A DNA stretch of 64,000 bases. Source: Eledone cirrhosa. Taxonomy: Eukaryota. Location of the stretch: NCBI GenBank assembly GCA_964016885.1, contig OZ024741.1:396862001-396926000 (forward strand), read 5' to 3'. The notes below the pieces were generated by a model. The model had not been told where the DNA came from. It did not search any database and was given only the letters and a program-made list of their open reading frames with translations. Each line of letters begins with the position of its first letter. The first letter of the stretch is position 1. The position numbers and the translations under genes are program-made. Below, piece by piece: positions 18,833 through 51,518 of this stretch.

Positions 18833-18886
18833 CATTCTGAGGATTGAAAGCAAAACCTTTTGCTTTTAAGAAACCACTGGTAAATG
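18833..18886 (+). ncRNA. Type I hammerhead ribozyme motif in PLE-type 3' end
   Basis: CATT-CTGAGGA-TTGAAAGCAAAA-CC-TTTTGCTTTTAA-GAAAC-CACTG-GTA-AATG, followed by a tail into (TA)n. Confidence 0.75.
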
Positions 18887-30627: not shown

Positions 30628-30645
30628 CTAATATATATATATATA

Positions 30646-31237
30646 TATTAAAATAACAGATTAAAGTTTAAGCAAAGAATCGCTGCTTTCACCCTTAACG
30701 GGATCTTCTGAAACTAACAAAGTCAATCTGTAAACGCAGAAGTGGATATTTAAAAAAACGTTGCAACCGGAGGAAGACAGGAAGACGATACTTTGGTTCG
30801 TGGAAACGTTCCCTGGCAAAGAACGGGAAAAACGAATATAATACCTCATTATTTGGAGCGGTGAAAAACAATTACACGCAAAGACAGAACCACGTCTGTG
30901 GTGTGGTTCTGTCTTTGCGTGTAATTGTTTTTCACCGCTCCAAATAATGAGGTATTATATTCGTTTTTCCCGTTCTTTGCCAGGGAACGTTTCCACGAAC
31001 CAAAGTATCGTCTTCCTGTCTTCCTCCGGTTGCAACGTTTTTTGAAATATTTACTTCTGCGTTCACAGATTGACTTTGTTAGTTTCAGAAGATCCCGTTA
31101 AGGGTGAAAGCAGCGATTCTTTGCTTAAACTTTAATCTGTTATTTTAATAAATATTTGCTCTACGGTTCTTATATATTCGATATATATTTATCCTTATCG
31201 AGCCCTCTTTGGTTTTAGTTTTCAAATGTATTATTAT

Positions 31238-36456: not shown

Positions 36457-37513
<1,057 letters not shown>

Positions 37514-39639: not shown

Positions 39640-39930
39640 TTTAGGGTACATTAAATCTGACTATCTCCATAGCCTCGTGTAGGCACAGTCGGCACTTTCT
39701 ACTTCCGCTAACCTAGTGAAGTGCCTTTTGCTACGGTCCCTGAAGGAATTCGTGTGATTATACATCCGTGATTATACATCCGCGATTTAAAGGTCGTGGA
39801 TGTTGCGCCTATGTAGGTTCGATGCGCATTCTGGGTCGTAACCACACACTTGTATACTAAGTCCTTCATTAAGCATTTTCCCTGTAGGGGGCACTGGTGC
39901 CCGCTCTACTGTTGCAAGTTCTGCTGTCAT
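39640..39930 (-). pseudogene. Degraded PLE GIY-YIG endonuclease
   Basis: CPLQGKCLMKDLVYKCVVTTQNAHRTYIGATSTTFKSRMYNH and RKCRLCLHEAMEI, with frameshift and deletion. Confidence 0.75.
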
Positions 39931-40002
39931 TTCTTGTGCGTCCGATGTCCGGGCCCCGATCTGTAATGGCCCTCTGGAAAAATTCAACTACTCTTCTTCC
40001 AT

Positions 40003-41062
40003 GGTATAAACCACCTTTAAGGTGGGGAAAGGAAGCATTTATGTTGAAAAGAAGAAAGAGGCCCACAAGATCAGTAATTTGGGCAGAATCACTTGAGCTC
40101 ATAGTAATATCGAATAGATTACTATATGTGTTTCTGGTCCAGTATTCATTTTGAAATTCCAATAGTGTTAGTCTGGCATGTGTAATAATATTAATGTCAT
40201 CCAAAGTTAAGTTAGATCTATTTTTAGCAAATATCAAGGCTTTGTTCAGGAGTATAGGTGATATAGAAGAATAATAATTATCTATATCAAATTGTAGAAA
40301 TGAAGCAGAGGATCTATTTCTAATATTATTAAACCAGTTAATTACCTGGGATGTGTTTTCCCAGAGTGGTAAATTAACATGTTTTCTTAGTTGTGGGATG
40401 ACTCTATCTAAAAAAATGTTACTAATGATTCCAATATCAGATTTGGAAGGGCATATAAGCCTTATAGAAGGATTAGAGTTAAAGTTAGATTTATGATCTT
40501 TCAGGTTGAAATGTCGTCTTTTCAGTGCCAAAGGTTCAGTTCTATCTTCAATATTAAGTCTATTCACTATGTTGTGTGTTTTGTTGTTGATGTTGGTAAG
40601 TGACGCATTGTTTGTTTTTCTATAATTCTTCCTGAGTTCTATATATATGAACTCATTGTAATTTTCAATATCCATGTGATATAGATTTCCAGTTTTGTCC
40701 GAGTGGACATGGATTTTTTTAGATTTTTTTAGATCCAATAGGGTAGAATCAAGATCCTTTTGAAAATTAGATTTATACCTCTTAAATTTGAGATGTTTGA
40801 TTAAATTAAAAAGGTCTTTCTCAAAGTTTTCAAGTAAGGAGTTGTGTGGTGGATTTTTATATGTAGTGAAATCATATAAATACTTCTTATCAGTACATTT
40901 TGTTTTTTTATCGAAGTGGTAGGCCCTCCATCTGACCCTTCTGATAAATTGGTTGGTTTTTTGTATCATAAGAAGTAAGAAATCATCCTTAGAAGGTAAT
41001 GGTATATTCTTTAAAGAAGTTCCCAAGTATTGTTTTTCCATTGTGATATGGATAATGGACAA
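40003..41062 (-). pseudogene. PLE reverse transcriptase, N-terminal part (Naiad-like)
   Basis: SLKNIPLPS, RRVRWRAYHF, DKTGNLY, FLQFDIDNYYSSI and ITMSSSDSAQITDLVGL. Breaks off at GGLY just before the DD dyad. Confidence 0.88.
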
Positions 41063-41170
41063 GAAAAAGGGCTCAACTATTTATATATGGAGTTATAAAG
41101 TTATACACATATATATATATATATATAAATATATATACACATACACATACATATACAATCACAAAAATAA

Positions 41171-42869: not shown

Positions 42870-45800
42870 AACAACAATAACAACACACACAACAATAATA
42901 ACACACACGGAGACAACAACAACACACATCAACAACAGCACACATCAACAACAACAACACACACACATTCAACGCCTCTCACCACCACCACAATCTTAAC
43001 AAACACACAGACACAGAAAACAAGTAATGACAGTAGCACAGAAATCACAAAAATAAGGGAAAGTAATAGAATAAAAAGGAGAAGGGAGACTAAGGACAAA
43101 TAAAATAACCAAGACGAACACACAGACACACAAAATAGGGTAGATAATAACAATGAGCCAGTGGAAAGAGACAGGAGTAATTATGAGAGACATAGAAACA
43201 ACCATGAGGCTGTTGGTGGAAATAGAGATAGAAACAACACAACTAACAATAACAATAGCACTAGTACACATAAAGCAGCAGCCTGGAACTCTACTTTTTA
43301 TAATCCCTCCGATAAGTCGTTCGACCTGCAACGAGTTCACGCCACGACTTTACCATTTAACAAACGCACGCAATTGCCGTCGCAGGTCGATGAACAAACA
43401 GAAGCACAATTTAGTATAGCTAGATCCGAACTTAGAAATATTATAGAACAGTATAGCAAGAAGCATAATAGAATGGAGGCCCAGCAACTGGGAGAAAAAT
43501 CTGCAAATGGCTTGCGTAAGCTCATGCAGCGCTCGCGTAATGGAGAGATAGCATGCTTTCCAACAGACAAGTCTGGCAGAATGTCGGTTGACAGCCTGCC
43601 AAACTACATCCAGGCAATGCAACCCCACATCACTAACACAAGAGAGGTAACACCACAGGAGCATGAGGATAGAGAAAAAACCCTCAATGCCCATATGGTG
43701 GTGTGGACGAATATAATGCAGCCCAACAAAAGGACTGCCAACAACTTCCAGGCCTGGAACAATGACGTGCCGGCGTTGTATGGGCTTCGAAAAGACCATA
43801 AAACGGGCAGTGACCCTGTCACGGGACCACCAACACGGCCAGTCTGTGGAGCTAACATTGCTAGTAACTACAGACTGTCCTACTTCCTCTCCCTGATCAT
43901 ACGCCCCATCATTGAAATGTCCCCAGATGTATGTGACAGCACGGAGGACCTCCTCAGCAGAATCGGCGAGGGTAACCGATCTAGGGACCTAACAAACTGC
44001 ATAATAGGTAGTATGGATGTTGTGTCCCTGTATCCATCTATTGACGTGGATTTTGCTGTGGAGAAATGCGTAGAAATGATCAGTGAGAGCAATGTTGAGT
44101 TCCGTGGGATTGATACCAGTGAGCTGGGACTCCTACTTATACTTACCTATAGTAATAATTACCTAGACACATATGACCTTAGCAACCTGTGCCCTACAAG
44201 ACCAGCAAGAGGCAGACCACCTACCATTACCTCAATGGCCAAGAAAACCCACACAGATAGATGGAACGGGTGGACCAGAGCCATACGGGTGGACCAGATC
44301 CCGAAAACCACGATGAACTGAAGAAAATGATTGCACATGCGGTAGGGGCCAGCATAAAACTAACCCTTAAGGAACATATGTTCAAATTTAAGGGAAAAAC
44401 ATATGCCCAAGAGGAAGGAGTAGCCATTGGTGTTAGCATTGCAGGCGACATAGCTAACTTATTCATGGTATGGTGGGACAGTAGACTTAAGCTTAAATTT
44501 AAAGAACAATTAGAAGACCCCTTAACCCTGATAATGTACTCCCGCTACGTTGATGATATAAACATCGTAGTTAAGACACCCCCACTAAAGAACAGTCAGG
44601 AAATAGAGAAAAACACAATGGAAAGCACCTAGAAAATAGCTAACTCCATCCACCAGAGTATTAGAGTTACTATAGACTACCCAAGTAAACACCCCAACCA
44701 TCGATTACCTGTACTAGACACAGAGCTCTGGTTAGATACCATTAATAACAAAAAACAAATCCTCCATTCCCATTATGCCAAACCCATGACTTCCAAACAT
44801 CTGATCCACCGAAACTCGGCTGTTTCGGACCATACCAAAATCAACATACTGATTGCGGATTTGGTACGGGTGATGAGAAACGTGTCCCGCATGTGCAACC
44901 CCGAAGAACTAGAGAGACACATACAACACTTCATCCACCGTATGCAGTTCTCTGGTTACAATCAGAGAGACAAAATCAGAGTGTATAGAGGAGCCAGAAC
45001 CAAATGGGAAAAAATGGTAAATAACGACATAAATGGGACCTGCCCCTTGTATAAGAGCAAATTTTGGAATAGAATAGAAAGAACTAGGAATAAGGCTAAT
45101 AGAATAAACTCATGGTATGATAGCAATAAATACCAGAGTGTAATGTTCATCGATACAACCCCTAGAGGTGAATTAGCTTACAAATTTAGAAGGGCCCTAG
45201 ATAAACATAAACTCAATATTAAGATAGTAGAAAGACCAGGTACCTCCGTAAAAACACATATTAGCAAGACATACCCTTTTCAAAGACCTCCATGTATAGA
45301 TAAGAAATGTATAACCTGTAAAATAAGCCCCCATATTAACTGTAAAACTAGAAATGTAGTGTATAGCATAAGATGTACTGAAGGACAATGTAGAGACAAA
45401 AATATAGTGTACATAGGTGAGACAGCTCGTAGTGTAGGGGAACGGAGAAATGAACACTGGCGAGACCTTCAAGATAGTAAAGAATCATCTGTACTCTACC
45501 AACATGCTAAAATAGAACACAAGGGTAAATTAGAGAACATAGAAATAAAAATAGAATCTACACACAGAAAAGACGCAATGTTTAGACAAATCACAGAGGC
45601 AATAAACATAAAGAATTACAACCAAAATTAAATAGAAAATATGAGTGGAACAGCAACATCACAACTTACAATTAAGGACAAAATGAAAACACACACACAC
45701 ACACATAGAACAAACAACCAACCAGTAACATGTAAATAAACAAATAAATAAATGAACATAAACACACACAGACACCCGGATCTGGCGCATGCGCAGACTA

Positions 45801-46140: not shown

Positions 46141-46193
<53 letters not shown>

Positions 46194-46359
46194 CGAAGGA
46201 ATTGTGGTAAGGAACCAGATGGACAATAACGCACCAGAGTAGTCAATACTTAGGGTAGTAGAGTGGGTAATAGGAAAATTTATGGCCCCGACGGCAGAGC
46301 TCAAGCCGTTTCGACGGCTATTTCCGGACTCAGAAATAGACGTCTGGGCCATACTTTTT

Positions 46360-46508
<149 letters not shown>

Positions 46509-47013
46509 GGAAGAAATGTGGTAAGGAACCAGGTGGACCATAACGCACCAAAGTACTCAATACTTAGGGTAGTTGAGTGGGTAATAGGAATGAGTAGGAC
46601 CCCGACAGCAGAGCTCAAGCCGTTTCGACGGCTATTTCTGTAGTCCAGAAATAGCCGTCGAAACGGCTTGATCCCTGCCATCGGGGTCATACTTTTTCCT
46701 ATTGCCCACTCTACTACACTAAGTAATGAATTATTGGCTTGATTTTTTTCATTTTTTCTTCTCTTTACGTTGCCTCCCCATTCGTGTCTGTTTACATGTC
46801 TTTCTCTTTCTCCACCCAACTCTTTTTATCCCAATAACTTATTTTAGTTATTGTATCGCCCTAGGCGGAGGTATATTGTCTGTAATGCGAAGAAATACCT
46901 ATGATGCCTAGTAGACAACTGATGACGGATATTCCTAACTTCTATTTCTAATTCTTCATTTTTTATACTTAAATGCAGCAACACAGTTCGCCATTTTTGA
47001 TTTATATATATAT

Positions 47014-47208
47014 ATAGTTATGTAATAAACAACATAGGGCTGTTGTTTCATTTACCAGTGGTTTCTTAGAGGCAAGCAGGTTTTGCTTTCAATCATCAGA
47101 ATGAAAAAATCCTGGTGTCATTCTGATGATTGAAAGCAAAATTTGTTTGCTTTTGGGAAGCCGCTGGTGGGTGAAGTAGTTACCTTATGTTGTTTATTAC
47201 ATAACTAT
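47014..47208. repeat. 91-bp-arm fold-back of the 18833 hammerhead family with clustered transitions
   Basis: 47014-47104 versus 47118-47208. The left arm has an intact hammerhead core on the minus strand. 19 arm differences are confined to the central 44 nt. Confidence 0.9.
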
Positions 47209-47602
47209 TAAGCTCTGTAACCTACATAGAGCACTCTTTTGTCCTGGACCTTTCCGACGGAATTACTTCATTTATATATATATGTGTGTATATATAACGA
47301 AGGAATTGTGGTGAGGAACCAGATGGGCCATAGCGCACCAAGGTACTCAATACTTAGTGTAGTAGAGTGGGCAATAGGAAAAAGTATGACCCCTACGGCA
47401 GGGATCATGCCGTTTCGACGGCTATTTCTGGACTACAGAAATAGCCGTCGAAACGGCTTGAGCTCTGCCGTCGGGGTCCTACTTGTTCCTATATATATAT
47501 ATATATACATGTCAACATGAATGGACCTATTATTTTTATCTAAAGACATTTTTTCCAATTCCATCCCGCCCGTCCCTTTAATCTACTTTATTTCTCATTC
47601 TT

Positions 47603-47638
47603 TCTTCTGATGAAGGACTAGCGTCCGAAACGTTAAGA
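47603..47638 (+). ncRNA. Minimal type I hammerhead ribozyme motif
   Basis: TCTT-CTGATGA-A-GGAC-TAGC-GTCC-GAAAC-GTT-AAGA, the classic PLE-type minimal form with palindromic AACGTT. Confidence 0.8.
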
Positions 47639-47727
47639 CCCTCTTCCTGCTATATCAAGCGTTAACCTAATATATACCTTCCATTTACTGTACCGATTGT
47701 GTTGCTATGTCTGTTTACCTTTTACAT

Positions 47728-47818
<91 letters not shown>

Positions 47819-48139
47819 ACGAAGGAAGTGTGGTAAGGAACCAGGTGGACCATAACGCACCAGAGTACTCGATACTTAGGGTAGTAGAGTGGGAAATAGG
47901 AAAAGTGTCAGGACCCCGACGATTGAGCTCCGGCCGTTTCGACAGCTAGTTTTGAACAGTTCAGAACTAGCTGTCGAAACGGCCGGAACTCAGCCGTCGG
48001 GGTCCTGACTCTTTTCCTATATATATACAATATGTTGAAAAGGTAACACACCAGAGAGAGATATACAGTGCGCTATCAATAAAACAGGGGAAAAAACCAC
48101 CAGTGTATGGAATCTATAACCTATGAAATATATATATAT

Positions 48140-49879: not shown

Positions 49880-49917
49880 AATATGGTTTTATAAATATAG
49901 TTTCCATTTATTAATAT

Positions 49918-49974
<57 letters not shown>

Positions 49975-49976
<2 letters not shown>

Positions 49977-51518
49977 GATGATGACATACTGATACTCACT
50001 TCTTCCCGGGAGATGGCGAATGAAATTCACCAAATCTTTAACGACACTGACCATCACGTCGATTTCACCATCGAACACCCTGAAGAAGACGGGTCACTCG
50101 CCCTCCTCGACTTCCGTATCAACATCTCGGAAGAAGGAGACATAAACACCACCTTCTACCGCAAGGCAGCGTGCAAGGACTTATTTATGCATTACAACTC
50201 AGCCCTCCCCAACAGCGCTAAGAGAGGCTATGTCCTAAATGAACTTACACGGATCACTAATAGATGCAGCGACCCGATGGGTGGTCTCACCCATACCACG
50301 CAATTCCGTAATCTACTCAAGTCTAATGGATATCCCAAGCGACTGATTAACGGAATTAGAGACCCCCAGACCCAATAGACAGACACCCACTAGAAACTTA
50401 GATAAAAGCAGGTGCTTCTTTAAAATCCCCCACCTGAGTGAATATACCACGAACGCCATCCGCAGGGCCATACGGAGGGAGGGACTTGACATACATTTGG
50501 CTCACACAGGACCTTCGCTCCGAAGATGCCTCTCCACCAAACCCGACGAGTCAGATGGGACGTGTTCCCTCAGCAACTGCCCGATACGGGGGGCAGATTG
50601 CCTACGCACCTATGTCGTATATAAGATTCAATGCGATAAATGTAACAAGTTTTACATAGGTAGCACCATCCGACCCCTACATGTTCGTATCAAGGAACAT
50701 GTCAACACCAACGCATCTTCCTTCCGTAAACACATCCTTAAATGCGGAAACCCACAGGGCAGACCCTTGGTCACAGTCCTAGCGACTGAACGCAGCATCG
50801 GATCCTTAAGGATAAAGGAAGCACTTGTTATTAAGAACCTCAGACCCCCACTTAACAACCTGGCTGAGAGAAATGAGCTGACATGGCTAATTTAACCATA
50901 GTGACCAGTAACAGCCCCTACGGCCTATTTATTATCTTTCACACACACGCACTTATATGTATACCCATACACATACACACACACACACACATCTATATTT
51001 ATACACGCACACATGTTTAAACAACCTACCACCTTTCACACCCTTTGAATTCCAGCTTCTACGGCCCACTATCTTTCACACACACACACTCACATACATA
51101 CACACATACACATATACACACACAGTTACACACACATATATATTTACACACACATATTTTACGGCTTTCACACGCTAGCGCACCCTATTGATTTAACCCA
51201 ATTGGTCAGTAGCTTTTGCCACAGCCTATCACGCGCACGCGCATTCTTTCCCTCGTTTGAATTTTCCCCATAACGGCATTCCTATGTTTTAACGACAATA
51301 CAACTTTCTCCGGCTTAGCCTGTTACCCCCCTTTTGGAACTTTCCCCCGTTGATGGGCGTGAGCCCGAAATATTGGGATTAAATCTCCACTACGGTAACC
51401 CTTCTACCTTTGTTTTGTTTTCCTTTTTCGTTTCTCTCAATTTTCACTTTTCTCCTATTTCTCACTCACTTCCTACCTCGAGATTTCCCATCTGCATTGT
51501 TGTGGCTTTCTAAACTAC

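Follow-up and report, generated by a model that had tools for sequence, protein, structure and literature searches.

An edit made in RNA is not normally regarded as directly heritable (PMC7703385), and a 2016 review said of Alu that a part played by ADAR in the mutation of retrotransposon copies "has not yet been determined" (PMC4982230). Among the closest described systems, cultured human cells yielded T>C clusters confined to inverted Alus in 3 of 235 pseudogene insertions made by L1 (PMC11702581), avian proviruses of RAV-1 and ALV were found to be A-to-G hypermutated (Felder 1994 and Hajjar and Linial 1995, as cited in PMC8586724), and clusters of A>G changes were described in the 3' LTR of BLV (10.1101/558130). 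LTR retroelements edited by APOBEC are known from vertebrate genomes, and were reported to be absent from the 19 invertebrate genomes that served as the negative control (PMC4866542). Repeat-directed RNA editing is widespread across squid tissues (PMC9068888), and the ADAR motif is described as a deficit of G on the 5' side together with an excess of G on the 3' side (PMC3197674, PMC8586724). With regard to mobile elements, RWK, DKT, CxCX5C, CxxC and CxH motifs are listed for Hydra-clade Penelope-like elements (PMC8557442), and head-to-head pairs with a one-sided tail are an ordinary insertion product of Penelope-like elements (PMC8557442, PMC3846280, PMC11167929). It has also been reported that Penelope captures host DNA between its terminal repeats, for which an antisense read-through template was hypothesised (PMC3846280). 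Here, we describe two source/copy pairs from one genome, that of Eledone cirrhosa, which contain what look like RNA edits made permanent.

The copy of the first pair lies in the window, by which we mean the whole stretch of 64,000 nucleotides that was analysed. It contains a hairpin formed by a left, inverted arm (47014..47104), a 13-nt loop (47105..47117) that is the same at the loci L002 and L003, and a right, sense arm (47118..47208), all on the plus strand. The original prediction held that the two 91-nt arms differ at 19 positions in the central 44 nt and that 17 of the 19 are compatible with G-U pairing in the plus-strand hairpin; both statements were borne out on recount, with every mismatch between the arms falling at arm positions 24-67. 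The folding energy calculated for the hairpin is -124.4 kcal/mol (z -20), a value reached by 0 of 200 shuffled sequences. When we polarised the changes by the majority of 37 other family copies and by four unedited left arms (the best 40 of 1,231 candidates were scored and 38 were used, the window copy among them), they resolved into 17 A>G, one A>T at 47041 in the left arm and one G>A at 47182 in the right arm, and not into mostly C>T or mixed changes. Eight A>G are located in the left arm and nine in the right arm. A total of 15 (9 right, 6 left) had been predicted; the right-arm number is correct, but the left-arm number is too low because the paralogue at 18833 used for that count comes from a subfamily in which two of the left-arm sites carry the other base to begin with.

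With a background rate taken from 76 arms and 6,450 bases, 1.2 A>G and T>C changes are expected in the 182 nt of the arms (Poisson p 2e-14 for the hairpin), and none of the 37 other family copies has more than four A>G. The strand skew amounts to 17 A>G versus 0 T>C (p 1.5e-5), and about a quarter of the adenosines in the arms (17/67) were changed. Dense A>G on one strand that dominates over the other change types, 17/19 in these arms and 40/41 in two hairpins of the second pair described below, is the pattern of ADAR hyper-editing. Since both arms were changed on the same strand, a single-stranded fold-back would be needed as the substrate. The hairpin is a mutational fossil, and no function is proposed or implied for it.

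Both arms belong to a repeat family, family A, whose copies lie in (TA)n and are made up of the arm and, on one side of it, a tail of about 62 nt. An inverted arm frequently precedes them, and an exact unedited 33-mer of this family occurs 6,661 times in the genome. In longer copies the arm and tail stand directly before an ORF and the arm appears again after it. This short single ORF contains RWK, DKT, CxCX5C, CxxC and CxH motifs, all of them present in locus L122, and is split by a frameshift in both listed copies. Family A also shows a terminal repeat at both ends, an inverted truncated copy, the one-sided tail and a (TA)n target, as Hydra-clade elements do. Judged by these motifs and this layout, family A is the terminal repeat of a putative Hydra-type Penelope-like retrotransposon. 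Pfam gave no match over the cut-off for the family A protein, the PDB search also gave no name, and the relatives had no informative names among the 120 listed. Three other Penelope-like ORF remnants were observed in the window at 39869-41080 (minus strand), 43104-45631 (plus strand) and 49881-50895 (plus strand); the first has Hydra-like RWR and DKT motifs and the second a weak GIY-YIG match.

The right arm contains a hammerhead motif, with CTGATGA at 47123-47129, GAAAC at 47157-47161 and the cleavage triplet at 47167-47169. As predicted, GAAAC was converted to GAAGC, at 47160, and we found that the predicted cleavage triplet was also changed, from GTA to GTG at 47169, so that two core positions are altered. 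The minimum-energy fold of an unedited single arm is a three-way type I hammerhead junction of -12.1 kcal/mol, while in the fold-back the long duplex dominates (-132 versus -12.1 for the single-arm hammerhead). With the CUGAUGA and GAAA core, three helices and an NUH site, the family A arm is modelled as a type I hammerhead; Rfam gave no hammerhead match at the gathering or E-value thresholds. A non-LTR retrozyme, which consists of head-to-tail tandem units with a hammerhead in each (10.64898/2026.07.22.740005), was rejected as its identity, since the copies are head-to-head pairs or single arms and not head-to-tail tandem units. At their 3' end, full-length family A elements carry a diverged variant of the arm (L122:3330-3490; also L052, L065 and L066) with a changed predicted cleavage triplet, and this 3'-end ribozyme copy may be inactive. 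A compact hammerhead-like motif (CTGATGA...GAAAC) of a further repeat family lies at 47607-47640 of the window and had no Rfam match at the gathering threshold.

The hairpin is part of an insert (46641-47435) in the centre of a C' palindrome. The left arm and tail of the C' fold-back form the left insertion flank (46507..46640, minus strand) and its right arm follows the insert (47436..47492, plus strand); these two pieces group together by diagnostic bases and do not group with the inserted C piece. From left to right, the insert is composed of an inverted duplicate of its own 3' end, which is a family C arm (46641..46729, plus strand), a family B repeat (46725..47002, plus strand), the hairpin, a one-sided family A 3' tail (47209..47272, plus strand), a (TA)n spacer (47273..47296, plus strand), and a family C tail and arm that is antisense on the plus strand (47297..47435, minus strand) and would form the RNA's 3' end. 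The same arm and tail precede the ORF in full-length family A elements. The left 89 nt, the inverted duplicate of the right end of the insert, have one A>G and one C>A in common with 47347-47436, and neither of these changes is present in L002 or in any other C copy compared. These two end copies differ at three further positions and at one position at the junction. As a possible mark of a retroelement end on the edited strand, the window insertion shows only this inverted end duplicate inside the C' palindrome.

The same order, B-(TA)n-A-(TA)n-C, is found at L002 (C2:317.05 Mb), 80 Mb away. Of the 40 places scored, L002 alone matched the composite in full, and each of the 17 A>G sites of the hairpin is an A there. 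Because L002 and the window have derived bases in B and C in common, and L002 extends further left in B, as do other B copies, we consider the window copy to be a truncated derivative of an L002-like locus. The density of A>G is uneven across the insert. While the arms contain 17 in 182 nt, the B piece contains one in 277 nt (five differences from L002 in total), the 64-nt tail contains none, and the C piece contains four among nine differences in about 140 nt. The changes are thus concentrated in the long duplex, and the single-stranded, A-rich flank B was nearly spared. A partner arm for the four A>G of the C piece was not found within 10 kb around L002. The (TA)n spacer is pure in L002 and contains three G in the window, which were possibly edited or arose by ordinary microsatellite change. 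Since the end copies differ at three positions and the insert carries about 1% of changes other than A>G, the insertion appears to be old and inherited.

Family C is a second family of fold-back and tail in (TA)n, and is present in the window at 46193-46360, 46507-46729, 47297-47492, 47819-48020 and 37324-37461, with its 5-nt loop in both orientations. A GAAAC, a short helix and a GTC in this family may be parts of a hammerhead, with the second helix as the point of inversion. At L002:1500-1695 one arm has two private changes; each is an A>G on the opposite strand from the window edits, and chance could account for them. Long near-perfect hairpins at 30641-31155 (253-nt arms, 98%) and 1392-1886 (229-nt arms, 93%) of the window were not among the hairpins picked out by the skew test described below.

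A second source/copy pair, reached through one hit of the pattern searches described below, is clearer than the pair formed by the window copy and L002. The segment C919:54765-63694 is a repeat-rich, 8.5-kb copy of C18:27270533-27279027, and these differ by 87 substitutions in 8,393 aligned bases; T>C accounts for 50 of them and A>G for 4. Two hairpins hold 40 of the 50 T>C and only one other change (p 3e-14), and many of the remaining differences are located in microsatellites. First, in a family A fold-back, 19 of 95 minus-strand adenosines were changed; these changes fall in both arms, and the strand that bears them is antisense to family A. Second, in an inverted SINE-like pair, which was not selected by our search patterns, 21 of 88 adenosines were changed. 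The two hairpins are 1.7 kb apart and were changed on the same strand. A 1.2-kb inverted LINE pair in C919 also appeared skewed (82:143), and this skew was gone once the changes were polarised. C919 is an unplaced 98-kb contig and its bases come from the assembly alone.

On the minus strand, the C919 copy terminates in a LINE 3' end whose (GAT)n tail has been lengthened, with similar TA-rich repeats to either side, and the (GAT)n expansion of about 500 nt stands in place of about 30 source bases. A longer copy of this LINE has Exo_endo_phos and RVT_1 domains, and the element is a likely member of the RTE type. The orientation of the LINE predicts the edited strand independently of the changes themselves. 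In both pairs the source keeps the ancestral bases and the copy is truncated at the 5' side of the RNA, as in a retrocopy. A target-site duplication was not identifiable in either, the targets being a palindrome in the window and a microsatellite in C919. The 5' end of the C919 copy is separated by 335 nt from a near full-length LINE with an endonuclease, a reverse transcriptase and a PHD-like cysteine motif (L092:3867-7244, minus strand), and many pieces of this LINE are present in the contig.

We then compared the sequence context of the changed adenosines in the three source-polarised hairpins, in which 57 of 250 were edited. By 5' neighbour, the edited numbers were 34/105 for A, 9/50 for C, 11/61 for T and 3/34 for G, with a p value of 0.046 for the 5' G deficit and 0.014 for the four-way comparison. 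It had been predicted that none of the changed sites of the window hairpin has a 5' G; this is correct for 0/17 edited versus 7/50 unedited adenosines, but is not significant in that hairpin alone (p 0.18), nor is the deficit in C919 alone (p 0.16). Adenosines with a 3' G neighbour were edited in 12/36 cases, which is not significant (p 0.13). The order of 5'-neighbour preference of ADAR favours 5' U, and the edited fraction of 0.18 after U shows no such preference here. The neighbour bias therefore fits ADAR in its direction, and this fit is weak. Matches to the adenosine-deaminase domain were found on the C6, C1 and C25 contigs. The C6 exon matches human ADAR2 structures (E 3e-102) and is 95% identical to an ADAR2 record of Octopus vulgaris; by this homology the genome encodes a predicted ADAR2-like deaminase.

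To see how often such clusters occur, we used search patterns that required G at one test adenosine and allowed A or G at the others. The three sites probed gave 14, 20 and 9 matches, with further A>G in 6, 4 and 1 of them, respectively. At one test site further A>G were found in 6/14 matches with G versus 1/27 with a transversion at the same site as the control (p 0.004), and in 5/13 versus 1/27 when one subfamily-like row was removed (p 0.0095). An antisense test was uninformative, as its site is a subfamily variant with 563 matches. Clusters were seen in six copies, namely the window copy, C919, L053, L055, L056 and L067, which corresponds, with three sites probed, to at least roughly 1 per 1,000 family A arms, a rare effect. 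The last four are single family A arms with four to eight sense-strand A>G (L053, C7:42.70 Mb; L055, C25:6.53 Mb; L056, C28:89.29 Mb; L067, C17:39.42 Mb). That all four are changed on the sense strand is only suggestive, given two sense-site searches versus one informative antisense search, and spectra against the nearest relative flatter their purity, since the relative chosen minimises other changes. L053 is truncated near the expected position of the fold-back loop. L052, L065 and L066, with two to three A>G in the motif, were dropped as they resemble the 3' terminal-repeat subfamily of full-length elements, and L054, with two changes, was dropped as too weak. An inverted SINE-like pair at L160:8560-9560 with a 7:0 skew was also rejected, its seven T>C being among 22 changes.

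Based on these observations, we suggest with high confidence, from the sequences compared, that ADAR hyper-edited a read-through RNA, which was afterwards copied into germline DNA by reverse transcription and took the hairpin along as a passenger. Terminal repeats of family A often form a head-to-head pair in (TA)n, and L002 holds the unedited composite. A plus-strand read-through transcript of an L002-type locus would fold back, and ADAR1 or ADAR2 would deaminate about a quarter of its arm adenosines. Two cDNAs of about 710 and 89 nt would then have been primed from the two sides of the C' palindrome on the same template and joined, probably by a Penelope-like reverse transcriptase; this junction model was read from the sequence only. 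The insertion would have been inherited since, acquiring the other changes of about 1%. In an ordinary Penelope-like insertion from an edited sense RNA, changes mirrored across the strands would be expected, as we infer from PMC11167929, whereas here both arms were changed on one strand. It seems likely that RNA edits become inherited mutations now and then. The central proposal of the original prediction, that the fold-back was transcribed, A-to-I edited, reverse-transcribed and inherited, is supported: it withstood the comparison with the family consensus and the alternative of two subfamilies, and it gained from L002 and from the C919/C18 pair. Its proposal of a ribozyme-bearing mobile RNA has to be modified, because the hairpin would have been mobilised as a passenger in a longer read-through RNA and not as a mobile ribozyme RNA itself.

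Here, we need to consider that an adenine deaminase may have acted on DNA, either ADAR on an RNA:DNA hybrid or another enzyme. Its substrate would be a hairpin or cruciform of single-stranded DNA, either at the original site or in an intermediate of copying, and the copies themselves would be products of DNA duplication. This would change one strand in both arms without RNA, and thousands of fold-backs could extrude. However, in both resolved pairs the cluster is in the truncated inserted copy and the source is without it, and the C919 changes lie on the sense strand of the LINE and not on the first-strand cDNA, in two hairpins 1.7 kb apart. Moreover, when we applied an unpolarised skew test (G-U versus A-C transitions per hairpin, p<0.01), none of 89 hairpins at unbiased family loci (16 with at least 8 transitions) was skewed, nor any of 266 in 56 evenly spaced 10-kb windows covering 560 kb (69 with at least 8 transitions), nor any of 10 around the C18 source. 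Skewed hairpins were found in 1/28 cases in the window, which is the present hairpin (17:1), and in 3/14 cases in C919, one of which failed polarisation. Deamination of DNA is improbable on this evidence.

Compared with editing of the RNA, it is very improbable that the changes arose by error-prone reverse transcription within the hairpin, through G placed opposite template U or a skewed dNTP pool. Reverse transcriptase may stall in a structured template, and the changes were indeed found in retrocopies and in their structured parts. Against this, the change type is nearly pure in both the window arms and the C919 hairpins, 20-25% of the duplex adenosines were changed, the A-rich single-stranded flanks were spared, 5' G was weakly avoided, and two apparently different reverse transcription systems show the same pattern.

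An error of sequencing or assembly at hairpins has very little probability. The confirmation by DNA reads that the original prediction called for was obtained for the left arm, as a 98-nt contig with no difference from 47011-47108 exists in the runs X1 (depth 8.9) and X2 (depth 8.1) and covers all nine left-arm changes; it is not listed for X3. The right arm has no such cover at 47156-47179, where no contig or read of 100% identity was found in X1, X3, X5 and X6, a gap that proves nothing in itself. X1-X3 are one sample, possibly the assembly's own, and C919 is unplaced, which leave some room for this explanation; on the other side, no such cluster is present in the source loci or in 37 further copies of this hairpin. 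Finally, the origin of the arms from two older subfamilies or by gene conversion can be dismissed as next to impossible. Subfamily variants do occur: known ones account for two of the left-arm G and for the G>A, and one test site is itself a subfamily variant. However, a pattern that demands two right-arm G was found at this locus alone in 3.0 Gb, and L002 has A at all 17 sites.

If ADAR editing of a read-through RNA is the origin, such clusters bear witness to ADAR activity in germ cells or early embryos, tell which DNA segments went through an RNA stage, and reveal which strand the reverse transcriptase used as its template. More tentatively, with a likelihood that we place slightly below even, germline ADAR editing and promiscuous reverse transcription would form a recurrent route of inherited mutation in octopods and leave a readable archive of germline editing. 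If this is true, there should be many retrocopies, with lengths reaching at least 8.5 kb, whose A>G clusters show the strand that served each retrotransposon as template. Genome sequence by itself could then answer whether Penelope-like elements use a sense or an antisense template, and mutation by this route could contribute to the A>G substitutions at edited sites.

When we compared these loci with the known systems, the element itself is close to the Hydra clade, sharing the short single ORF with its motifs, the terminal-repeat hammerhead, inverted 5'-truncated copies, the one-sided tail and (TA)n targets, although the tail of the Hydra clade is 30-40 nt compared with about 62 nt here, and edited copies are not mentioned in the relevant section of that paper (PMC8557442). 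As in Penelope-mediated capture, unrelated sequence is carried between inverted pieces of a terminal repeat; unlike in the captured cases described, the edits here mark a template strand antisense to family C, and no target-site duplication was found (PMC3846280). The scars left by APOBEC are likewise inherited fossils of a deaminase, seen as strand-biased clusters relative to a source or consensus, but APOBEC edits cDNA and leaves G>A in LTR elements, whereas the A>G here are concentrated in RNA duplexes (PMC4866542). The retroviral proviruses share short dense A>G clusters ascribed to ADAR and fixed by reverse transcription; those are viral RNAs in infected somatic cells, in contrast to the host read-through RNA and non-viral elements described here. 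No report of inherited ADAR-type clusters in invertebrate retrocopies was found in a full-text search of largely open-access literature. Another precedent is the L1 pseudogene insertions (PMC11702581), in which an edited duplex RNA was also carried as a passenger by the reverse transcriptase of a retrotransposon and the clusters were confined to inverted repeats. Those cases are somatic and culture-induced, while the present ones are natural, likely inherited and from an invertebrate, and involve a LINE that is likely of the RTE type as well as, probably, a Penelope-like reverse transcriptase. The mechanism has precedents, and natural inherited cases in an invertebrate are what would be new.
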